Counted from the stretch's first letter, positions 6,631-60,051 are shown. The stretch is DNA of 64,000 nt from Candidatus Omnitrophota bacterium (GCA_030674475.1 JAUSCZ010000014.1:13938-77937), one strand, 5' to 3'. Numbers and translations: made by a program. The notes: generated by a model not told the origin, from the letters alone.

Positions 6631-6654
6631 ATAAGATGAAACAGTTATGTTCCG

Positions 6655-6751
6655 CCGAGGTGTGGCACCAATGAGAATGAAAATAAAGTTTAGATCAGCC
6701 GTGTCGCGTAGCGGTGCGATTTATCGTACCTGTAAGGAGATTCTCAGGTGA
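6655..6751 (+). promoter_or_regulatory. conserved 5' leader with 26-codon uORF (MRMKIKFRSAVSRSGAIYRTCKEILR), copy A, upstream of dCMP deaminase
   Basis: ~80% nt identity to 53225-53321. uORF ATG at 6671, TGA at 6749-6751, overlapping the GTG start (GTGA). Hairpin GTGCGAT-tt-ATCGTAC. Confidence 0.6.
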
Positions 6752-7278
6752 AAAATAAAGAATACAAGCCCAGCCCTTGTAAGCAAGGGCTGGGTAAAGA
6801 TATCCGTCCTGATTGGGATGAATATTTCCTGGGGATAATTCAGGAAATAGCTAAAAGAGCCACCTGTGACCGGGGGAAAGCCGGCTGTGTAATCGTTAAG
6901 GATAAAAGAATCCTGGCTACCGGTTATGTGGGTTCGCCCGCCGGACAGCCGCACTGCGACGAGGCCGGGCATATGATGCGGGATGTGGTCAGCCCTGACG
7001 GCTCAATAAGCAAGCATTGTATCCGGACAATCCACGCCGAGCAGAACGCCATTTGTCAGGCGGCCCGCTTTGGCATACCTTTAGAAGGCTCAACCCTGTA
7101 TTGTAAAATGGAGCCCTGTTTTACCTGCGCCAAGATGATTGTAAACTGTGGAATAAAAAAAGTGGTCTGCTCCGGAAAATACCATGCCGCGCAGTCCAGC
7201 CGCGAATTGTTTAAAAAGGCAAAAGTAGAACTGCGCGTCTTATCTCAAGAGGTAGTAAGATATAAAGATCAGAGATAG
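6748..7278 (+). CDS. dCMP (deoxycytidylate) deaminase, ComEB-like
   Basis: Zinc-binding HAEQNAI ... PCFTCAKMIV cytidine/deoxycytidylate deaminase motifs. GTG start overlaps the stop of the conserved upstream uORF. Confidence 0.85.
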   Translation: MKNKEYKPSPCKQGLGKDIRPDWDEYFLGIIQEIAKRATCDRGKAGCVIVKDKRILATGYVGSPAGQPHCDEAGHMMRDVVSPDGSISKHCIRTIHAEQNAICQAARFGIPLEGSTLYCKMEPCFTCAKMIVNCGIKKVVCSGKYHAAQSSRELFKKAKVELRVLSQEVVRYKDQR

Positions 7279-10081: not shown

Positions 10082-11047
10082 ATGTTTATAAGAAATACTG
10101 AGATAAAGATAGTTCAGGGCGATATTACTGAAATTGAGGCTGAGGCTATTGTCAACGCCGCCAATAACCAGCTTTTGATGGGAGGAGGGGTGGCCGGAGC
10201 CATTAAGAAAAAAGGCGGAAAGATAATTGAGGATGAGGCAGTTAAAAAAGGGCCGATAGAAATCGGTGAGGCGATATCCAGCCCTGCCGGGAAGCTGAAG
10301 GCGAAATATGTTATCCACGCCGCGACTATGGGAATGGATTTCAAGACCAATGAAGTAAAAATCCGCGCGGCCTGCAATAGTTCCTTAAAAGAGGCTGAAA
10401 AACTAAAAGTTCACTCAATCGCCTTTCCGGCCTTAGGTTGCGGGGTGGGCGGCTTTCCGGAAACCGGCTCAGCCAAAATTATGGCCCAGGAGATATTCCG
10501 GCATTTGTGGTTTGACCATCCGCAGACTTCTTTAAAAGAAATAACCTTTGTCCTTTTTGATAAGCCTGCTTACGATACCTTTAATAAAAATGTGCTAAGC
10601 TATCTGGAATACATCATTCATAAAATTCAACAGGGGCCGTTTATCACCGTGGATATAATAATTGAACTCTCCGCAGGCATTGTTTTGATTGAGCGTTCCA
10701 ATCCCCCTTATGGCTGGGCCATTCCCGGAGGATTCCTGGATTATAATGAGAGCCTGGAGGATTGCGCGGTGAGGGAAGCCAAAGAAGAGACCGCCTTAGA
10801 TATATATGATTTAAAACAACTGCATACTTATTCCCGCCCCGGGCGCGACCCCCGTTTTCAGACCGTAACTACTGTATTCACGGCTAAAGCTAAAGGTAAA
10901 CCCCAGGCCGGCTCCGACGCCGCCAATCTTAAGGTCGTGAAGCCGGAGGAGGCATCGAAACTTAATCTGGCCTTTGACCATAAACAGGTTATTTCAGATT
11001 ATATATCTGCGGCCAGAAAACTTCGCTCTTTTTCGTCTATCATTTAA
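10082..11047 (+). CDS. Macro domain (ADP-ribose/O-acetyl-ADP-ribose processing) fused to NUDIX hydrolase
   Basis: N-terminal [18 protein letters not shown] macro motif. C-terminal Nudix box [24 protein letters not shown]. Confidence 0.8.
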
Positions 11048-13287: not shown

Positions 13288-13855
13288 ATGCGTCAATAAA
13301 GACAAGTCCGCCTGGAGTGAGTTTGTCCCGCGGTTTCGTCCCGTAGTTGAGAAGTCTGTCCGCTCCAGGCTCGCCCGCCATAATTTTCCCCACACTACAG
13401 AAGACCTAAAAGATATTACCCAAGGGATATTTCTGGATATCTGGGAAAAGAATAAATTAGCGTTAGTTAAAGATGAAGATAAAATTACCGGCTGGCTGGT
13501 GGTAGTCGCGCAAAATGCCGCGATTGACTATATCCGCTCACAGGCAAAATTTAACCGCCAGCGCTCGGTGTGCGCTAATGAAGATGGCGGAGTAAATGAT
13601 ATCTTGAATATTCTGCCTTCAGAAACCAATCTTTCCCAGGAATTAGCCAAAGGGGACTTAGCTGAAGCAGTAGATGAGTTGATTAACGCCCTGGAGCCGA
13701 GAGAGAAACTGATTCTAAGGCTGAATATCCAGCACAACCAGACTCATAAGGAAATCGCGATTTTTTTGAATATCCCTATTAACACCGTTTCCAGCATTCT
13801 GCGCCGGACAATGATTAGTTTTAGGGAGGATTTGAATAAAAAGGGATATATTTAA
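13259..13855 (+). CDS. ECF-type RNA polymerase sigma factor
   Basis: Sigma-70 region 2 (IFLDIWEK...AIDYIRSQ) and region 4 (LILRLNIQHNQTHKEIAIFLNIPINTVSSILRR). GTG start overlaps the aroC 3' end. Confidence 0.75.
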   Translation: MLTLKELVNRCVNKDKSAWSEFVPRFRPVVEKSVRSRLARHNFPHTTEDLKDITQGIFLDIWEKNKLALVKDEDKITGWLVVVAQNAAIDYIRSQAKFNRQRSVCANEDGGVNDILNILPSETNLSQELAKGDLAEAVDELINALEPREKLILRLNIQHNQTHKEIAIFLNIPINTVSSILRRTMISFREDLNKKGYI

Positions 13856-13904
13856 AATATTTTTGCACGAAAACAGCCGATTCTTACGTCTTAATAAGTA
13901 GGGA
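13854..13904 (+). promoter_or_regulatory. promoter-like cassette, copy 1 (duplicated upstream of two genes)
   Basis: AAAATATTTTTGCACGAAAACAGCCGATTCTTACGTCTTAATAAGTAGGGA is ~90% identical to 14347-14397. Both copies keep the same TGCAC-N18-CGTCT spacing and the same distance to the ATG. Confidence 0.5.
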
Positions 13905-13910
13905 GGGAAT

Positions 13911-14369
13911 ATGCCGGATTTAACCAGGATAATCAAAAATGGCTTTAGCCGCACCTCATGCGGCCTTAAAAAGACTCCGCAGTGCCCGTCAGAGCTGGAG
14001 CTGGGTAAATATTTGGATAAGTCCGCCTCTGTCAGCCAGAAAGACAGGATTGAAAGACATCTGGCGAACTGCGGCTATTGCTTAGATTTATTGGTTACGG
14101 CTAAAAAGGCGCTGAAAGATTCCCCAAAAAAGCCGAATGTTCTCCAGGCCCTAAATCAGCAGAAGTGGTTTATCTTAAGTATGCTGAGCTTAGGAATGTC
14201 CTTCTTTATCAAAAGGTATTTCTTCCAATTCCTTACCCTGAGCCTCATCTTTGGCCTTAAATGGGCCCTGAGCGCCGAAGGCAGCCGGAACCTGGTAATG
14301 ATTTTCCGTAGTCTGGGCCAAAAAGATACGGCGGATAGCAAAAAAGAAAATATTTTTGCACGAAAATAG
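13911..14369 (+). CDS. zf-HC2 putative anti-sigma factor with TM segment
   Basis: HLANCGYCLDLL zinc-finger anti-sigma motif, then a hydrophobic segment. Immediately downstream of the ECF sigma. Confidence 0.6.
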   Translation: MPDLTRIIKNGFSRTSCGLKKTPQCPSELELGKYLDKSASVSQKDRIERHLANCGYCLDLLVTAKKALKDSPKKPNVLQALNQQKWFILSMLSLGMSFFIKRYFFQFLTLSLIFGLKWALSAEGSRNLVMIFRSLGQKDTADSKKENIFARK

Positions 14370-14397
14370 CCATTTCTTACGTCTATATAAGTAAGGA
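14347..14397 (+). promoter_or_regulatory. promoter-like cassette, copy 2
   Basis: AAAATATTTTTGCACGAAAATAGCCATTTCTTACGTCTATATAAGTAAGGA. Overlaps the 3' end of the anti-sigma ORF and precedes a 28-codon ORF and spoVG. Confidence 0.5.
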
Positions 14398-14503
14398 CAG
14401 AAATTATGGCAGGAAAGGCTGTAATTGGGATGTCCGAAACTTATCCCGCCGCTTTGCTTCGGAAAACGAAGCTGGGGGGTGCATTTGAGTAGGAGGTGGC
14501 AAG

Positions 14504-14946: not shown

Positions 14947-15171
14947 GTGAGGCAATGGTTAAGCGGTAAGATTGTTAAAATAGCAATAAGATTGTGTTAT
15001 TGCAGGGGGGATTCAATGCTTATGGACAATCAAACTAAACAGAATATCCGTATTGTTTTAGAGTATCTTTGGCGCGATGAAGAACGGCACTATCTTGAAA
15101 GCCGGGAGTGCAAGAAGCATATTTTTCATATTTTAAAGCATTTAGCAAAAGTTGTTAAATATGAACCTTGA
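14947..15171 (+). CDS. small hypothetical protein upstream of the DpnI-like gene (true start possibly 15017)
   Basis: ORF only. RBS GGGGGGATTCA precedes the internal ATG. Overlaps the start of the REase gene. Confidence 0.3.
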   Translation: MRQWLSGKIVKIAIRLCYCRGDSMLMDNQTKQNIRIVLEYLWRDEERHYLESRECKKHIFHILKHLAKVVKYEP

Positions 15172-15931
15172 TTTGGATAAGCGAGCAGTTGAGTCCTATA
15201 AAAGCTCTTCACAAAGGGCGAGAGTTTTAACTGAGGCGTGGGTTAATAAAGAGGCTTATTGCCCTAATTGTGGTAATGCGCGTCTTACTAAATATTCTAA
15301 TAATAAGCCTGTTGCCGACTTCTTTTGTAGAAGTTGCAATGAGGATTTCGAACTTAAAAGCAAAAAGGATTCATTCGGAGCTAAAATTGTCGATGGGGAT
15401 TATCAAGCAATGCTTAAGAGATTAGCTGATGTTCATAATCCAAACTTCTTTTTGTTAAATTACGATTTATGTTCATATCAGGTTTTAAATTTCTTTGTGA
15501 TCCCAAAGCACTTTTTTGTTCCTGAAATCATCGAGGAGAGGAAACCCCTCTCAATTGACGCGGAGAGAGCGGAATGGATAGGGTGCAATATTTTATTAAG
15601 CAGAATGCCTGAAGCAGGCAGGATTTTCTTGGTTAAGGATGGACAGGTCAAACCAAAAGAAGATGTTTGCGCGGTTTGGCAAAAAACTCTATTTTTACGG
15701 GAAAAAAAGAAGGCTGAATCGAGAGGCTGGATTTTGGATGTTATGCGCTGCATTGAAGCGGTTCGCAAGAAGGAGTTTACCCTTGCGGACATTTATAAGT
15801 TTGAGTCTATACTGTTTGAACAACACCCTGACAACAGGCATATAAAAGATAAAATTAGACAGCAGCTTCAAATATTGCGAGACAAAGGCTATTTGGTATT
15901 TTTGGGAAAAGGCAGATATGGATTAGCGTGA
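15152..15931 (+). CDS. DpnI-family (Dam-replacing family) methyl-directed Type IIM restriction endonuclease
   Basis: Aligns along its whole length with R.DpnI as I recall it: YCPNCGN, PVADFFC, FELKSKK, NPNFF, WIGCNI, GRIFLV, KIRQQLQILRDK. PD-(D/E)XK N-domain plus a winged-helix C-domain. Confidence 0.75.
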   Translation: MLNMNLDLDKRAVESYKSSSQRARVLTEAWVNKEAYCPNCGNARLTKYSNNKPVADFFCRSCNEDFELKSKKDSFGAKIVDGDYQAMLKRLADVHNPNFFLLNYDLCSYQVLNFFVIPKHFFVPEIIEERKPLSIDAERAEWIGCNILLSRMPEAGRIFLVKDGQVKPKEDVCAVWQKTLFLREKKKAESRGWILDVMRCIEAVRKKEFTLADIYKFESILFEQHPDNRHIKDKIRQQLQILRDKGYLVFLGKGRYGLA

Positions 15932-18701: not shown

Positions 18702-18708
18702 GGCAATG

Positions 18709-18757
18709 CCTGCCTGCCGGCAGGCAGGGTTTGGCTTCCTATAGCCAAAGCCATAAG
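18709..18757. repeat. composite REP-like element: CCTGCCTGCCGGCAGGCAGG palindrome plus GGTTTGGCTTCC-N3-AGCCAAAGCCATAAG element
   Basis: Perfect 20-bp palindrome at 18709-18728, with a second palindromic unit directly after it. Both families recur elsewhere in the window. Confidence 0.7.
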
Positions 18758-28223: not shown

Positions 28224-29336
28224 AATATGAATATTTTAATTCTGGCCAATCATTTTAATCCCGGAGGGATATCCAGCTATATCTTAAATTTGGCTCAAGG
28301 ATTGGCGGTGAAAGGACATCAGGTATCTGTCGGTTCCGCGGGCGGGGAGTGGGTGGAGAGGCTTAAGAAAAATAATATAGAACATATTAATCTGCCTTTA
28401 AAAACCAAATCCATAATCAGCCCTAAGCTTTTGTTTTCTTATTTTATTTTAAAGAAGGAGTTAAGGGATAAACGGATTGATATAATCCACAGCCAGACCC
28501 GGGTTACCAGCGTTTTGGCTTATTGGTTATCCCGAAAGACCCTGGTTCCTTTTATTTCTACCGCCCATGGTTTTTTTAAGCCGCGCTGGGTGAGGTTAAG
28601 ATTTCCCTGTTGGGGGGATTTGGTTATTGCTATCTCAGAGGCAGTCAAAGAGCATTTAATCGCGGATTTTAAGGTTATTCCGAATAAGATACGATTGGTG
28701 CATAATGGAATTAGCCTGAGCAGAGAACAGATAAACACCTGCCTGCCGGCAGGCAGGGATAACAGAGAACAGATAAGGAAAGGGCTTGGATTAAAAGAGG
28801 GGCCGGTGGTGGGAATTATTGCCCGGCTTTCTGAGGTAAAAGGACATATATATTTGATTCAGGCAATGAAGAAGGTTATCGAAGAAATCCCGGAGGCCCA
28901 ACTTTTGAGCGTGGGAGACGGAGCGATAAAAAAAGAATTAGAGAATCTCGCGCGCAGTTTGGGTGTCTTAGGGCGGATAAGTTTTGTTCCCGCGGTCGCG
29001 GACACCCGGGAGGCGCTCTCGGTAATGGATGTCTTTGTGATGCCCTCTTTGCAGGAAGGATTGGGTCTATCTATAATGGAGGCGATGCTTTCCGGACTGG
29101 CGGTAATCGCTTCTTCAGTCGGAGGCATACCGTCTTTGATTAAAGACGGACACACTGGGATATTAGTCGCGCCTAAAGACGCGGAGGCTTTAGCTCAGGC
29201 GATAATCAGCCTGTTGAGGGATAATAAAAAGGCATTCGAATTAGGCAAAAATGCCCGGGAATTGATTGTAAAAGAATTTTCTTTAGAGAGAATGGTTCAG
29301 GAGACAGAAGAGGTTTATCAACAATGCCTAAGGTAA
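28224..29336 (+). CDS. GT4 glycosyltransferase (group 1) carrying a 14-aa in-frame repeat-derived insertion
   Basis: GT4 motifs (EGLGLSIMEAMLSGLAVIASSVGG). Internal ATG at 28224 (MNILILANHFNPGG) is preferred. The track ORF starts at 28158 inside the inverted repeat. Confidence 0.8.
   Translation, partial: NMNILILANHFNPGGISSYILNLAQGLAVKGHQVSVGSAGGEWVERLKKNNIEHINLPLKTKSIISPKLLFSYFILKKELRDKRIDIIHSQTRVTSVLAYWLSRKTLVPFISTAHGFFKPRWVRLRFPCWGDLVIAISEAVKEHLIADFKVIPNKIRLVHNGISLSREQINTCLPAGRDNREQIRKGLGLKEGPVVGIIARLSEVKGHIYLIQAMKKVIEEIPEAQLLSVGDGAIKKELENLARSLGVLGRISFVPAVADTREALSVMDVFVMPSLQEGLGLSIMEAMLSGLAVIASSVGGIPSLIKDGHTGILVAPKDAEALAQAIISLLRDNKKAFELGKNARELIVKEFSLERMVQETEEVYQQCLR
28735..28762. repeat. 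REP-like palindrome CCTGCCTGCCGGCAGGCAGG inserted in-frame inside the GT4 CDS
   Basis: 28-nt insert flanked by 14-nt direct repeats CAGAGAACAGATAA (28721-28734 and 28763-28776). Net +42 nt, read as REQI-NTCLPAGRDN-REQI. Confidence 0.75.
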
Positions 29337-30463: not shown

Positions 30464-30853
30464 ATGAGAAAAGAAGTTTTAGATAATGAATTGGCTAAAA
30501 TAGAAAAGATTAGCAAAGAGTTTGATGTGAAAAAAGTATTTTTGTTTGGTTCGTGTCTCGAAAGCGTTGAGACGGCTAATGATATTGATATAGCAGTAGA
30601 GGGAATTAAGGCCAAGGACTTTTTTAAATACTATGGAAGAATCTCTATGGCTACAGATAATGAAGTTGACTTAGTTGATTTGGATGATATTAGAGAGCAT
30701 TTCCAGAAAAGAATTTTATCTAAAGGGAGGATTATATATGAAAGAGCAGTAAGAGCGATACAGGTGGATGATTTTATTTTAGATTCTTTGAAATTTCCAG
30801 TGGGTAAGATAGAAATCCTCCCCTTACCAAGGGGAGGCGGGGAGGGGTTATAA
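30464..30853 (+). CDS. minimal nucleotidyltransferase (MntA/Pol-beta superfamily), orphan
   Basis: FLFGSCLESVETANDIDIAV (GS-X9-DxD) motif. Its C-terminal 12 codons read into palindromic repeat copy 1. No HEPN partner follows. Confidence 0.6.
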   Translation: MRKEVLDNELAKIEKISKEFDVKKVFLFGSCLESVETANDIDIAVEGIKAKDFFKYYGRISMATDNEVDLVDLDDIREHFQKRILSKGRIIYERAVRAIQVDDFILDSLKFPVGKIEILPLPRGGGEGL

Positions 30854-31350
30854 CCAAGGCATTTAATAGACCAGAGCAAAAACTAAAGCGCAAGGCATTG
30901 AGACGCAATATGCCCTTAGCTGAAGTTATTTTATGGAGTAGATTAAAAGGCAAACAATTAGAAGGCTGTAAATTCAGAAGGCAGTATTTGAAATCCTCCC
31001 CTTAACAAGGGGAGGCGGGGTGGGGTCATTAAGCATTTTGTCATAGATTTTTATTCTACTGAATTAAGATTAGCCATAGAACTTGACGGAGAGTCTCACT
31101 ATGTCCAGGACGCGCCGTTGGCGGATAGGGAGAGACAAAACCAAATTAAGGTATTCGATGTTCAATTCCTGAGGTTTACGAACCAGGATATATATGAAAA
31201 TTTAGAAGGGGTATTATTAAAGATAGTTGAACAGATTAAACAAATTACCTCCCCTACCCCTCCTTGGTAAGGAGGGGATAAGAAATCTTTCTATTAACAA
31301 ATGAGGTAAGAAATCCTCCCCTTACCAAGGGGAGGCGGGGAGGGTAAGAA
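30813..31350. repeat. cluster of four ~40-bp palindromic repeats (AAATCCTCCCCTTACCAAGGGGAGGCGGGGAGGG), three direct and one inverted
   Basis: Copies at 30813-30853, 30991-31033, 31247-31286 (inverted) and 31311-31350. Copy 2 splits a DUF559 ORF and brings in a TAA stop. Confidence 0.75.
30868..31270 (+). pseudogene. DUF559 (Vsr-like endonuclease domain) gene disrupted by a palindromic repeat
   Basis: N-part RRNMPLAEVILWSRLKGKQLEGCKFRRQY. C-part VIDFYSTELRLAIELDGESHY...VQFLRFTNQDIYENLEGVL. The two parts match consecutive DUF559 blocks and are separated by the 43-nt repeat at 30991-31033. Confidence 0.65.
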
Positions 31351-38720: not shown

Positions 38721-38825
38721 CAAGCCAAAGCCATAAGCCAGAGGGCGATGGTTTGCATTCCATATAAGCAAAGCCATAAGCCAGAGGGCGATGGTTTGCA
38801 TTCCATATAAGCAAAGCCATAAGCC
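38721..38825. repeat. ~44-bp tandem repeat x2.4 (AAGCAAAGCCATAAGCCAGAGGGCGATGGTTTGCATTCCATAT)
   Basis: Two full units (38721-38765, 38766-38808) and a partial third. The unit contains the AGCCAAAGCCATAAGCC core shared with the in-CDS insertion at 32365-32415. Followed by TTGACA at 38827. Confidence 0.8.
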
Positions 38826-45086: not shown

Positions 45087-45181
45087 TGTCATTCCCGCAA
45101 TCTTTTGGCGGGAATCCACGACGATAGAAAAACCTGCCTGCCTGCCGGTAGGCAGGGATGCCCGCCTTCGCGGGCATGACA
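45087..45181. repeat. composite MITE-like palindromic element (TGTCATTCCCGC ... CCTGCCTGCCTGCCGGTAGGCAGGGA ... GCGGGCATGACA)
   Basis: Terminal inverted repeats TGTCATTCCCGC / GCGGGCATGACA. Internal GCGGGAA hairpin and a family-1 palindrome. A related shorter copy is at 48251-48294. Confidence 0.65.
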
Positions 45182-48250: not shown

Positions 48251-48294
48251 TGTCATTCCCGCGAAAGCGGCCTGCCTGCCGGTAGGCAGGGAAT
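48251..48294. repeat. REP-like element TGTCATTCCCGC-gaaa-GCGG-CCTGCCTGCCGGTAGGCAGG-GAAT
   Basis: Family-1 palindrome nested in ATTCCC/GGGAAT arms. Shares its 5' end with the 45087 element. Confidence 0.65.
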
Positions 48295-51103: not shown

Positions 51104-53200
51104 ATGAATTTATTCTGGCTGGCGCCTTTAGGTTCGTGTTTGGCTTTGGGTTTTGTGGTGTATCTGATTTTTGTGGTGATTTTGCCTAAAGACCCCGGTA
51201 CGGATAAAATGCAGGAGATTGCCCGCTATGTCTCCGAGGGGGCTTATGCCTATTTGAAAAGGCAGTATTCAATAGTGGGGATATTTTTCGCGGTAGTTTT
51301 TTGTATACTTTTGTGGATGGTTCACCAGGGGTATTTGGTTATTTTTGTGCCTTTTGCTTTTTTAAGCGGCGGGTTTTTCTCCGGCCTTTCCGGATTTATC
51401 GGGATGACTATCGCCACTAAGGCCTCCAATCGCACTACCTCAGCCGCCCGGATCAGCTTGAATTCGGCCTTGAGGGTAGCCTTCTCCGCCGGAAGCGTGA
51501 TGGGTTTTACCGTGGTGGGTTTGGGGTTATTAGACTTAGTCATCTGGTATGGTATTTTAGATTGGTATTACGCTACTCATCCTATTGTTATAGGGATGGA
51601 TAAAATTTCCGCCATTACTTCAACTATGCTTTGTTTTGGAATGGGGGCATCCAGCCAGGCCCTTTTTGCCCGGGTAGGGGGAGGAATATTCACTAAGGCC
51701 GCGGATGTGGGGGCCGATCTTGTGGGTAAGGTTGAGGCCGGCATTCCGGAGGATGATCCCAGAAACCCGGCGGTAATTGCCGATAATGTCGGGGATAATG
51801 TGGGAGATGTGGCCGGGATGGGGGCGGACCTTTATGAGTCTTATGTGGGCTCAATTGTGGCTACCAGCGCTCTCGGCGTGGCCGCCGGCCTGGGGCTGGC
51901 CGGGGTAATCGTGCCGATGGCTATGGCCGGATTAGGAGTGGTGGCTTCAATAATCGGAACATTCTTTGTTAATACCAAAGAGGATGCCTCCCAGGGAACA
52001 CTGTTAGCTGCCTTAAGGAGAGGGGTGCTGGTCAGCGCGGGCATCATTGTGGTTACTTCGTTTTTTCTGGTGAAGTGGACCCTGGGCAGCCATAATTTAG
52101 GGTTTTACTGGTCAATTATTTTTGGGCTTTTGGCCGGGATAATCATTGGCATAGTTACTGAATATTATACCTCATCCGGCTTTAAGCCGACCAAACAGAT
52201 TGCCGAGTCGGCCTTAACCGGACCGGCCACGGTAATTATCAGCGGTATTGCCGTGGGTATGCTTTCTACCCTGGTGCCGGTAATAGTGGTGGGTATAGCC
52301 ATATTGGCTTCTTTTTATGTGTCCGGAGGAGCGGTTAATTTTAATTCCGGATTATACGGGATAGCCATATCCGCCGTGGGTATGCTCTCTACCTTGGGGA
52401 TTACCCTGGCTACCGATGCCTATGGCCCGATAGCCGATAATGCCGGAGGGAATGCCCAGATGTCTGGTCAGCCGCCGGAGGTCAGGGCCAGGACCGATGC
52501 CCTGGATGCCTTGGGTAATACTACTGCCGCTACCGGAAAAGGCTTTGCCATCGGTTCAGCCGCTCTTACCGCCCTGGCCTTGATTGCCGCCTATAAGGAT
52601 CAGGTTTTGATTTTAGGCAAAGATTTAAAGTTGGATTTGATGGATCCTAGGATTTTAGTCGGGCTCTTTATCGGCGGGATGCTTCCTTATTTATTCTGCT
52701 CTTTAACTATGCAGGCAGTAGGCCGGGCCGCGGGTAAGATTGTGGTGGAGGTCAGGAGGCAGTTTAAGGAAATTAAGGGTTTATTTGAGGGCACGGCCAA
52801 GGCCGATTATGTCCGCTGTGTGGGCATAGCCACCTCCGCCGCCCAAAAAGAGATGATTCTGCCTTCATTGCTGGCGGTGTTGGCTCCCATCATTGTGGGT
52901 ATGCTTATCGGACTGGAGGCTGAGGTCGGGCTCCTGGTCGGGGCTCTGGTTTCGGGATTTGTCTTGGCAGTGATGATGGCCAATTCCGGGGGAGCCTGGG
53001 ATAACGCCAAGAAATATATTGAGGAAGGAAATCTCGGGGGCAAAGGCTCCCTGCCGCATAAGGCGGCAGTGGTCGGAGATACCGTGGGCGACCCTTTCAA
53101 AGACACCGCCGGCCCTTCTTTAAATATCCTGATTAAACTGATGTCTATGGTCTCTATAGTCTTTGCCGGTTTTATCCTCAAGAACACCTTGATGAAGTAG
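51104..53200 (+). CDS. hppA: membrane-bound proton-translocating pyrophosphatase
   Basis: Multi-TM protein with [14 protein letters not shown] and [15 protein letters not shown] signatures. Confidence 0.9.
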
Positions 53201-53224
53201 TTAAAATTAAACAATCATGCCCGC

Positions 53225-53321
53225 CAAAGGCGTGACACCAATGAACATGAAAATAGAGTTTGGGTTATCCGTATTCCGTAGCGGCGCGATTTATCGCGCT
53301 GGAGAGGAGATTTTCAGGTGA
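53225..53321 (+). promoter_or_regulatory. conserved 5' leader with 26-codon uORF (MNMKIEFGLSVFRSGAIYRAGEEIFR), copy B, upstream of aminotransferase
   Basis: Same 81-nt uORF length. TGA overlaps the GTG start at 53318. Hairpin GCGCGAT-tt-ATCGCGC shows compensatory changes relative to copy A. Confidence 0.6.
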
Positions 53322-54472
53322 AAGATATTATTGCTAAGAAAGTCCGGGATATGCGGCCATCGGGGATAAGGGCGTTTTTTGACCTGGTGCTGGGGATGAA
53401 GGATGTCATATCCTTAGGAGTGGGCGAACCGGATTTTGCCACTCCCTGGAGCATTCGGGAATCGGCGATATTTTCCCTGGAGCAGGGTTGGACTAGTTAT
53501 ACCTCAAATAAAGGTTTGATGAAGTTAAGGATGGGTATCTCGCGTTTTCTTAAAAACCATCACGGCCTTGCTTATAATCCTGAGGATGAAATTTTAGTAA
53601 CCGTGGGGGTGAGCGAGGCCCTGGATTTGGCGGCGCGCTCAATTTTAAATCCCGGGGATAAGGTTTTGATTCCTGAACCCTGTTATGTTTCTTATGGCCC
53701 GGTATGCGCTTTGGCCGGAGGAGAGCCGGTGTATATCTCAACCGCCAAGTCTAATTTTAAGCTCAGGCCGGCGGATATCGAGAAAAACTGTGATGCTAAA
53801 ACTAAGGCTATAATTTTTAATTATCCGGCCAATCCTACGGGAGTTTCTTATACCAAAAAGGAATTAGAGGAAATCAAAAAGGTAATTCTAAAACATAAAC
53901 TGATTATGATTAGTGATGAGGTGTATGATGAGCTGACCTATGATTTTAAACATACGCCTTTCGCCTCGCTATCCGGAGCAAAAAACAATACCCTTTATCT
54001 GAATGGTTTTTCTAAAAGCTACGCCATGACCGGCTGGCGGGTGGGATATGCCTGTGGCCCTCGCGAGATAATCGCGGCAATGACCAAGATTCATCAGTAT
54101 ACCATTATGTGCGTGTCCACAATTAGTCAGATGGCATCCTGCGAGGCTTTGCAAGGCGCCGGTAAAGCGGTTAGTGAAATGAGGCGGGAATATCAGAGGA
54201 GGAGAGAGCTTGTGGTGGATGGCCTAAACCGGATGGGGCTAAAGTGCCTTAAGCCCCAGGGGGCCTTTTACGCCTTCGCCGGCATAGAAAGTACCGGCTT
54301 AAGCTCAATGGATTTTTGCTCCAGGCTCCTTAAGGAGCAGAAGGTGGCGGTGGTTCCGGGAAATGCCTTTGGAGATTCGGGAGAAGGCTATATCCGTATT
54401 TCCTACGCCTCAAGCTTAGAGAATCTGCGCGAGGCCTTAAGTAGAATGGCTGTGTTCTTAAAGAAGTTATAA
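53318..54472 (+). CDS. class I/II PLP-dependent aminotransferase (aspartate aminotransferase-like)
   Basis: NPTG, SFSKSYAMTGWRVGY (PLP lysine) motifs. GTG start overlaps the conserved uORF stop. Confidence 0.85.
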   Translation: MKDIIAKKVRDMRPSGIRAFFDLVLGMKDVISLGVGEPDFATPWSIRESAIFSLEQGWTSYTSNKGLMKLRMGISRFLKNHHGLAYNPEDEILVTVGVSEALDLAARSILNPGDKVLIPEPCYVSYGPVCALAGGEPVYISTAKSNFKLRPADIEKNCDAKTKAIIFNYPANPTGVSYTKKELEEIKKVILKHKLIMISDEVYDELTYDFKHTPFASLSGAKNNTLYLNGFSKSYAMTGWRVGYACGPREIIAAMTKIHQYTIMCVSTISQMASCEALQGAGKAVSEMRREYQRRRELVVDGLNRMGLKCLKPQGAFYAFAGIESTGLSSMDFCSRLLKEQKVAVVPGNAFGDSGEGYIRISYASSLENLREALSRMAVFLKKL

Positions 54473-59863: not shown

Positions 59864-60051
59864 CATGAACAAAAAGGGGACAGGCTGATTTTATTCTGAT
59901 TGTTCCCATATAGTAATTTGTAGCGGTTGCCGCCTGCCTGCCGGCAGGTAAGGCAACTAGTGGTGAGCGCAGTCGAACCACGATATCATAAGGTCAGTGG
60001 ACACTGACCCCTACACGCTGACCGCTACAGACTGATTCTTGTAGATTGAAT

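Follow-up and report, generated by a model that had tools for sequence, protein, structure and literature searches.

A small repeat in Omnitrophota DNA that probably inserts behind ATG AAA and repairs the gene start it splits

We believe that the repeat lying before the aminotransferase gene in this DNA is probably a small non-autonomous insertion element, which lands directly 3' of an ATG AAA and repairs the gene start that it splits. It is an insertion with defined boundaries. It occurs in tandem and in truncated forms, its main hairpin covaries, and the core of that hairpin is identical to known REP repeats. We go further, and more tentatively, in suggesting what moves it. This would be a miniature element of a kind not described before, one that homes to the second codon of genes and is self-repairing, served by a RAYT or IS200-like enzyme that uses the GTAG hairpin and cuts after TGAAA, and the gene start that it strands would become a coupling mini-ORF. 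If this is true, a tiny non-autonomous element targets translation starts and avoids harm by means of its own start signals. It would also connect REP-type hairpins, which have mostly been seen behind genes as short repeats standing alone, with a structured unit that has defined ends. To our knowledge it is novel for the target to be a translation start and for the replacement to be carried by the element.

The repeat and the boundaries of the insertion

The window is the whole 64 kb stretch of DNA that was analysed. Two of its junctions between co-directional genes concern us here. Copy B of the element separates the genes for an H+-pyrophosphatase and a class I/II aminotransferase, and copy A separates glyA (SHMT) from a dCMP deaminase gene. 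The aminotransferase (53318..54472, + strand) matches Pfam PF00155 with E = 1e-76 and its homologues come from Omnitrophota; these homologues and those of the deaminase place the organism in the Omnitrophota.

The sequence-only reading of this DNA had described a conserved uORF leader before the aminotransferase, with a partner at 6655-6751. The partner is indeed a homologue, and the homology is longer than had been noted. It runs for 126 nt without a gap (53202-53327 against 6632-6757) at 75% identity, and the mean column identity of the two copies is 81% over 181 aligned columns. At both loci the repeat spans the entire 117-nt gap from stop codon to next start codon. With up to 3 mismatches allowed, two separate conserved blocks (20 and 26 nt) turn up at exactly two places each in the window and at none in 100 shuffles. 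This homology is far beyond chance. The small ORF, its overlap with the start codon and the hairpin were also found in the sequence as that reading had them (Table 1).

Table 1. Features of the element and its flanks in copy B and in copy A
Feature	Position	Strand	Remarks
Copy B: H+-PPase stop codon TAG	53198-53200		5 nt before left flanking repeat
Copy B: left flanking repeat ATTAAA	53206..53211	+	decayed original aminotransferase start (ATG AAA)
Copy B: inserted element, 112 nt	53212..53323	+	from C53212 to terminal GTGAAA; ends from filled/empty comparison, tandem junctions and nhmmer
Copy B: 5' hairpin CGCC-AAA-GGCG	53222..53232	+	4 pairs
Copy B: small ORF, 26 codons	53241..53321	+	ATG at 53241; TGA 53319-53321 overlaps GTG 53318-53320
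Copy B: internal ATGAAA	53247..53252	+	exact left end of the 5'-truncated copy in L115/L074
Copy B: REP-like core	53278..53301	+	GTAG (53278-53281) and hairpin C-GGCGCGA-TTTA-TCGCGCT-G (53282-53301), which includes GCGCGA-TTTA-TCGCGC (53284-53299)
Copy B: Shine-Dalgarno GAGGAG	53304..53309	+	element-borne, 8 nt 5' of GTG
Copy B: spacer ATTTTCAGGT	53310..53319	+	complementary to ACATGAAAAT at 53245-53254
Copy B: spacer between SD and GTG AAA			ATTTTCAG
Copy B: GTG AAA	53318-53323	+	first two aminotransferase codons; right end of element
Copy A: native dCMP deaminase ATGAAA	6636..6641	+	now left flank of element; 5 nt after glyA stop codon
Copy A: partner copy of element, 112 nt	6642..6753	+
Copy A: GTAG	6708-6711
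Copy A: core stem	6713-6719 with 6724-6730
Copy A: GTGAAA	6748-6753

There is one clean empty site, and it corresponds to copy A. Loci L140/L141 keep the synteny glyA-deaminase-nrdR of the window with a deaminase that is 89% identical. Their junction reads TAA-gctaaagag-ATGAAA/AATAAAGAT (a 9-nt spacer, then ATGAAA/AATAAAGATCATAAAGAT...), where the slash marks the point of insertion. In the window the same junction reads TAA-ataag-ATGAAA/C...(112 nt)...CAGGTGAAA/AATAAAGAA (also .../AATAAAGAATACAAG...). The two share the sequence from codon 3 onward, which follows the gene's ATGAAA in the empty site (ATGAAA/AATAAAGA) and the element-terminal GTGAAA in the window (GTGAAA/AATAAAGA). The comparison of filled with empty site makes the element a 112-nt insertion directly 3' of the native ATG AAA. 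Its last six bases re-create the start and the Lys codon, in frame with codon 3.

Other relatives of this junction also do without the element. L136/L137, whose deaminases are 95-97% identical, have a repeat-rich 181-nt spacer and a different N-terminus, and L139 has a 274-nt spacer with other palindromes. The differing content of these loci marks the glyA-deaminase junction as a hot spot for small insertions, and since the block is absent from closer relatives it is not an inherited leader of the deaminase gene.

The closest aminotransferase orthologues that lack the element (80% identity; L121/L122 and L124) follow a different gene than the one at copy B. The aminotransferase start in L121, ATGAAAGATATTATT, is exactly what follows the element in copy B. 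The left flank of copy B is ATGAAA in L119, which carries the orthologous hppA-aminotransferase copy in a 94%-identical genome, and has decayed to ATTAAA in the window. Over five independent full insertions the left flank is ATGAAA, ATGAGA, ATGAAG or ATTAAA, and the left flank of second tandem copies is GTGAAA, the terminal hexamer of the preceding copy. The right end is (G/A/T)TGAAA. The left hexamer of full copies lies at the upstream stop codon or at most 5 nt from it. The left ATG overlaps the upstream TGA in the Bat-operon insertions and lies 1 nt after TAA in the flippase-GT2 pair, placements that would be expected of the original start of a tightly packed gene. The element-free loci examined included no Bat, DUF4330-like, apt-like or GT2 orthologues that could serve as further empty sites.

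The flanking hexamers are unequal within insertions (ATGAAA with GTGAAA, ATTAAA with GTGAAA), so the sequences fit equally well with a duplicated target, with site-specific recombination at a 6-bp core, or with insertion on the 3' side of a fixed target. The + strand of the window carries 40 ATGAAA hexamers and 2 copies of the element. The strict position at start codons could be partly the result of survivorship rather than of targeting.

Further copies were gathered by a hairpin-core scan of species-representative genomes, a scan of metagenomes with the 5' block, a profile search of related DNA and look-ups of contigs. The family comes to 9 insertions at 7 gene junctions, with 7 insertions at 5 junctions lying beyond the window, and it recurs within a narrow set of Omnitrophota genomes. 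All the relatives were recovered from a few groundwater and sediment metagenomes, and several loci are one sequence sampled more than once. The number of independent insertions is approximate (~9 at 7 junctions), and the structure statistics given below are over 8 or 9 closely related sequences. Matches of nhmmer to the element have E values of 1e-25 to 1e-40. In the genome scan with the hairpin core, the sole whole-element relative among the matches listed was L074 (Omnitrophota genome UBA12090), which is 93.5% identical to copy B over 77 nt and lies between a sigma-factor-like gene and a DUF4330-like gene. Another copy lies in a Bat operon between BatB-like and BatC-like genes. The contig index, looked up for exact matches, has a record of neither the 34-aa ORF nor the aminotransferase. 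A scan of viral contigs gave 0 matches to the full core pattern. With the SD/start block alone it gave 12, 11 of them ordinary ribosome-binding sites, and with the 5' block and 3' block together it gave one chance match inside a gene (L154) plus L151 again.

Every copy points in the same direction as its flanking genes. Wherever a right end adjoins a gene it is fused to the start codon of that gene; the first copy of each tandem pair adjoins the second copy instead. In full and truncated copies that are followed by a gene, the gene's second codon is AAA in every case. The downstream genes encode dCMP deaminase, aminotransferase, a DUF4330-like protein, BatC-like and BatE-like TPR proteins, a GT2 glycosyltransferase and an apt-like protein, which are functionally unrelated.

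Two independent head-to-tail pairs were found, at the BatD/BatE junction and at the junction of a flippase-like gene with a GT2 glycosyltransferase gene. In both the tandem junction is ...TTTTCA(A/G)GTGAAA/CAGTCATGCC..., that is ...CAGGTGAAA/CAGTCATGCC..., which gives the right and left ends of the element directly. A 5'-truncated copy (L115/L074) begins exactly at the internal ATGAAA of the element, as would happen if the TGAAA there served as an alternative left end or if the stretch from one hexamer to the other were deleted. A minimal version, with the GTAG hairpin, SD and GTG only, stands before the apt-like gene. Within the window the SD, spacer and start block GGAGATT[CT]TCAGGTGAAA is confined to the two copies of the element, which shows that this genome does not use it as its generic ribosome-binding site.

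The hairpins, the REP core and constraint

The core hairpin has a stem of 7 bp (53283-53289 with 53294-53300, including one G-T pair), extended to 8 bp in copy B. Across 9 distinct copies 63/63 cells of the 7-bp stem are paired. Compensatory change affects two of the stem pairs, with three cases of C-G to U-A and one of G-C to C-G, and slid controls all collapse. The hairpin reported for copy B is therefore a real one, upheld by compensatory change.

By definition, a GTAG-tagged REP consists of a short GC-rich palindrome and, ahead of it, a GTAG that stays unpaired (Di Nocera et al. PMC3733652; Corneloup et al. PMC8266576), and the element core has just this structure. The resemblance extends to the sequence. 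Stretches of 22-29 nt of the core are identical in GTAG-tagged REPs of Pantoea, Erwinia and Enterobacter ludwigii and in copies from genomes of Chloroflexia, Ktedonobacteraceae, Armatimonadia and WOR-3, and copy B itself agrees with these perfectly over 25-29 nt. Among the matches listed, the 20-mer CGTAGCGGYGCGATTTATCG is a high-copy repeat in the first three and is also present in the other four. In ~171 kb of Omnitrophota DNA, with up to 5 mismatches allowed, every GTAG-hairpin core lies inside an element, with the SD/start block at a fixed distance. There are 12 occurrences, which are 9 distinct insertions, some of them seen in more than one overlapping locus; no stand-alone core and no inverted pair was found in this DNA.

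The other possible structures of the element are less firmly supported. The 5' hairpin has standard pairs in all cells of the 7/7 aligned copies that have it, and its changes are one-sided only (C-to-U, C-G-to-G-U), so the pairing evidence is weak. The inverted repeat formed by ACATGAAAAT and ATTTTCAGGT is 10 nt long and 90% complementary; over 8 copies 52/56 cells (93%) of its 7-bp core are paired, with one-sided changes only. This suggests a helix that could join the small ORF's start to the spacer and the gene's start codon. An alternative helix of UUAUCCG with CAGGUGA, with 84% of cells paired, would mask the start codon directly, which we offer as a suggestion. Neither long-range helix shows a double compensatory change. 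The folding energies of the two window copies on the + strand lie at z = -2.1 and -2.0 relative to shuffles.

A promoter inside the element is a weak possibility. There is a sigma70-like match, GTGACA-16-TAGAGT, at 53232-53259, but the -10 hexamer ends in C in two copies and the truncated copy is without the -35 hexamer. As the sequence-only reading had remarked, the resemblance of the 5' end to a sigma54 box is not conserved in copy B. We rejected a sigma54 promoter, since TGGCAC is found in some copies only and is without a TTGC partner.

Copy B appears to be under constraint. Between the window and L119 the intergenic region that bears it agrees at 110/117 positions, with one indel, as against 85% at third codon positions of its two neighbour genes (binomial P ~0.003). 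The same 9.5 kb contains four other intergenic regions of more than 60 nt; identity is 17-43% in three of them and 86%, with a 17-nt insertion, in the fourth. Identity above that of third codon positions means that the fixed copy is constrained. Such constraint is expected if the gene needs the element for initiation, and it fits a further RNA-level role too.

The small ORF and competing explanations

The idea of a conserved uORF leader holds in part. A small ORF, a TGA/GTG overlap, a hairpin and an SD are present in both window copies, but neither conservation of the ORF nor gene-specific regulation stands up. In L119 and in L115/L074 a GGA-to-TGA change ends the ORF 17 nt before the start codon, and a 1-nt indel between copy B and L119 shifts the frame of its 5' part. 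An earlier in-frame ATG at 53217 (6647 in copy A) would lengthen the ORF to 34 codons. L128 has ATA in place of the second ATG and the L134 pair reads the 5' half in another frame. Read from the native ATG, the ORF in copy A stops after 12 codons with an ATGA overlap with the next ATG. What recurs seems to be the arrangement, an ORF that runs from near the upstream stop to the next start, and not the peptide. Among the 7 element-gene junctions that contain a small ORF, 5 have its stop overlapping the next start (GTGA/ATGA), and at the others the ORF stops no more than 17 nt from the start codon. From such an architecture translational coupling by way of the small ORF would plausibly follow.

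A genuine small-protein gene of ~26-38 aa, with paralogues and translationally coupled to its neighbours, is hardly credible on this record. Gene callers do place ORFs of 38, 64 and 76 aa on the copies, which overlap their neighbours by 4 nt on either side, and synonymous-type differences are somewhat enriched in the region that encodes RSGAIYR. However, the premature stops, the starts changed to ATT or ATA and the frameshifts that give different 5'-half peptides all speak against it. A peptide-profile search (with a doubled artificial profile) of 5.8 billion proteins found two ORF clusters only, both of them tandem element copies. The conserved RSGAIYR is merely the translation of the GTAG hairpin, and the same DNA is kept as a non-coding REP in other phyla. 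Annotators should be aware that "genes" of 30-80 aa and apparent "conserved leaders" over these blocks are repeat copies, and that in these little-known Omnitrophota genomes an element can be the source of a start codon or N-terminus.

Somewhat less improbable, and still very unlikely in our opinion, is the explanation given in the sequence-only reading, a cis-regulatory leader of particular genes. This would be a uORF, attenuator or riboswitch-like RNA that responds to a signal and puts the aminotransferase and the dCMP deaminase into a small regulon. Two copies before two metabolic genes, a small ORF that overlaps the start codon, a stable hairpin and folding energy somewhat below that of shuffles make it a natural suggestion. 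The distribution of the element largely refutes it: the same element stands before at least seven genes unrelated in function and is missing at the same junction in close relatives. Nor does the element have the conserved ORF, the terminator and antiterminator or the coherent set of genes of a leader-peptide attenuator. No terminator-like alternative structure was found in the block at copy B, and copy A has a weak consensus match only, on the + strand. Rfam gave nothing relevant for the whole window at gathering score or for the locus at E up to 10. Covariation is confined to the hairpin, which is not the pattern of a riboswitch or other cis-regulatory RNA family.

The alternative that deserves the most attention, although we think it unlikely, is a portable expression module that is selected by the host for its benefit to expression and is not self-mobile, carried around by recombination between stretches of ATGAAA microhomology. 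It would consist of a stabiliser hairpin (5' or intercistronic), the SD, the start codon, the coupling mini-ORF and possibly the promoter GTGACA-16-TAGAGT. The conservation of the orthologous copy above synonymous sites, and far above three of the four other intergenic regions, fits such a host-beneficial module equally well. So do the frequent overlap of stop with next start, and three insertions in which the ORF starts at the upstream stop or 1 nt after it and is kept open by compensating indels though the peptide changes. The G-U pairs in the stem are as expected for an RNA, and the possible helix of the small ORF's start with the spacer before the gene start would suit a module as well, as would the sigma70-like match. 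On the other side, the presence/absence differences and the tandem and degenerate copies resemble insertion dynamics, the closest orthologue has lost the stop/start overlap, the long-range helices are without a compensatory double change, and the promoter match has the defects described above.

A possible mechanism and relation to known systems

The insertion element that we favour might work as follows. An HUH/Y1 enzyme that acts on single-stranded DNA, of the RAYT or IS200/IS605-like kind, would recognise the GTAG hairpin and cut 3' of TGAAA. Copies end in an SD of their own, a fixed spacer and (G/A/T)TG AAA in frame with codon 3. This replaces the displaced start, so that insertion after codon 2 should do no harm. 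A second copy can land behind the terminal GTGAAA of the first and give a head-to-tail pair. The stranded native start would open a short ORF that ends at or just before the new start, and ribosomes would be handed on from one to the other. These ribosomes could melt the hairpin and the possible start-masking helix. The hairpin may itself have a stabilising or structural role. Once fixed, a copy would be under host-level constraint, since the expression of the gene would depend on it. No Y1/HUH domain was found in 20 small ORFs of the window and no Y1/HUH transposase among the called genes of the related loci, which cover a small fraction of any genome; no full-length element with the same ends was seen in the loci examined.

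Among known systems, REPs share the most sequence with the element. In both, a GTAG left unpaired immediately precedes a short, GC-rich, perfect hairpin whose loop is of the TTTA type, both are intergenic between co-directional genes with G-T pairs and complementary stem variants, and over 22-29 nt the element core is the same, letter for letter, as copies in Pantoea, Erwinia and others. The palindromic stem-loop of REPs measures 20-40 nt, and they typically have more than 100 copies per genome with differing flanks and frequent inverted pairs (REPIN/BIME), and there is a cognate RAYT gene (TnpA-REP; a Y1 HUH transposase), usually REP-flanked (PMC3733652, PMC8266576). The element's hairpin, in contrast, never stands alone or in inverted pairs, and is found only as a single core or in head-to-tail units. 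The RAYTs characterised to date cleave at a CT or CA dinucleotide (PMC8266576), whereas the element ends at TGAAA.

In its behaviour the element appears to be most like a miniature element of the IS200/IS605 type, with a fixed left target, subterminal hairpins and tandem insertion. Members of this family, like the miniature derivatives called PATEs, use single-stranded DNA to insert on the 3' side of a fixed sequence of four or five nucleotides. Like them the element is without terminal inverted repeats and has a hairpin a short way in from each end, at a distance of 10 nt on the left and 23 nt on the right. It always lies 3' of the same short ATGAAA-like sequence, which its right end repeats, so that tandem insertion is possible, and its copies keep one orientation in a genome with strong strand bias. 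The element differs in that its two subterminal hairpins are unrelated in sequence, that no TnpA or TnpB gene was found in the loci examined, and that its target is a translation start for which it carries a replacement. We know of no description of such a target and replacement in the IS200/IS605 family.

The islands and prophages that integrate into tRNA genes carry a replacement for the gene end. The likeness is clear: a split gene is rescued by the element's duplicate of the displaced segment, and a direct repeat is found at both junctions. Our element, however, is 112 nt long with no integrase, enters the 5' end of the gene, and restores a ribosome-binding site and start, not the end of a structural RNA.

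Translational coupling by a short upstream cistron is familiar both from the ATGA/GTGA overlaps of natural operons and from synthetic bicistronic designs. The element's short ORF likewise contains the SD of the next gene and mostly ends in GTGA or ATGA. It differs in that the overlap is not kept in the closest orthologue, and the coupling itself is a prediction from the sequence. The element also offers a natural instance of a portable ribosome-binding-site cassette.

The element is no classical MITE, since it has no terminal inverted repeats: none was found at the ends of the three copies inspected, which have internal inverted repeats only. Other MITE traits are present, namely an ATGAAA-like direct repeat at both junctions and differences in presence and absence. 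With ERIC, Correia, BOX/RUP/SPRITE and RPE the element shares being small, non-autonomous, dispersed and co-transcribed, with a small ORF sometimes annotated and with presence/absence differences. RPE and intragenic REPs tolerate being translated (PMC3733652, PMC3049150), as does the element. It differs from all of these repeats in being without terminal inverted repeats, in having its position fixed to the base relative to the start codon, and in replacing the ribosome-binding site and first two codons of its target. One copy of the element has itself received a guest, another palindromic repeat that is nested in the loop of its hairpin.

Insertions around the start of the dCMP deaminase gene

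The junction between glyA and the dCMP deaminase gene varies in length among the related genomes compared, and each length version is filled by a different repeat or palindrome (see table). On the sequences compared, the junction is therefore a hot spot for small insertions. The window also carries a palindrome within the deaminase gene itself, and this is missing from the orthologue at L140 and L141, two loci where the junction is free of the approximately 112-nt element. The palindrome appears to have been inserted in frame into the coding region. Its minus strand is also terminator-like by score.

Locations of junction versions, repeats and associated genes
Feature	Location	Remark
glyA-dCMP deaminase junction	window 6631-6747	117 nt
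glyA-dCMP deaminase junction	L140 3992-4000	9 nt
glyA-dCMP deaminase junction	L137 1304-1484	181 nt
glyA-dCMP deaminase junction	L139 3727-4000	274 nt
Perfect palindrome, 11-bp stem, CCCAGCCCTTGTAAGCAAGGGCTGGG	window 6769-6794	in frame, dCMP deaminase N-terminus, about codons 8-16
Element-like stretch	L151 1109-1175	
CCTGCCTGCCGGCAGGCAGG family copies	window 18702-18730, 28731-28759, 45130-45158, 48264-48292, 59926-59954	
CCTGCCTACCGCAGGCAGG	L117 about 11005-11023	nested in element hairpin loop
GAAATCCTCCCCTTACCAAGGGGAGGCGGGGAGGGG copies	window 30812-30851, 30990-31029, 31310-31349	
GAAATCCTCCCCTTACCAAGGGGAGGCGGGGAGGGG matches outside window	L115 1460-1504; L117 5209-5248	
56-nt direct repeat, 86% identical	window 13854-13909, 14347-14402	upstream of two neighbouring genes
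Perfect 43-nt tandem duplication	window 38726-38811	
DpnI-like (Dam-replacing family) restriction endonuclease gene	window 15152-15931	

Possible variants of the element

Two contigs carry sequences that resemble the element without its GTAG hairpin. L151 is an AT-rich, phage-like IMG/VR contig (IMGVR_UViG_3300032112_000026) whose element-like stretch runs in the order ATGAAACATTCATGCC, the hairpin GCCGATAAATCGGC, ATGAAAAT and GGAGATTTTCAGGTGAAA, followed by an HTH-like gene. Its 5' 16-mer and that of the element agree at 15 of 16 positions; the 3' block is identical in both. The stretch is possibly a short relative of the element, one without the GTAG hairpin. The other contig, L126, holds a 92%-identical orthologue of the aminotransferase and begins 41 nt 5' of that gene. 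Its positions 1-47 contain the 3' block of the element (AGGAGATTTTCAGGTGAAAGAT) and the GGTTAT of the middle block with no GTAG hairpin between them; the stretch is either a variant of the element or a copy left after loss of the hairpin.

Strand bias, other repeats and duplications

In window positions 1-64000 the + strand carries nearly all long ORFs, and every 2-kb bin has a positive GC skew. How the element is oriented with respect to genes is therefore inseparable from how it is oriented with respect to replication.

The window holds further repeats. A second palindromic family, CCTGCCTGCCGGCAGGCAGG, has five copies; in contigs L117 and L127 a relative, CCTGCCTACCGCAGGCAGG, is nested within the first of the tandem element copies, in its hairpin loop. 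A third repeat, GAAATCCTCCCCTTACCAAGGGGAGGCGGGGAGGGG, occurs three times inside 540 nt, and 40-45 nt matches to it at 95% identity are found in contigs with no other DNA similarity to the window. The two genes downstream of the 56-nt direct repeat lie beside a sigma factor gene of ECF type and an anti-sigma-like gene of zf-HC2 type. The window has a DpnI-like restriction endonuclease gene; the related contig L128 has a different restriction-modification cluster, beside the Bat operon.
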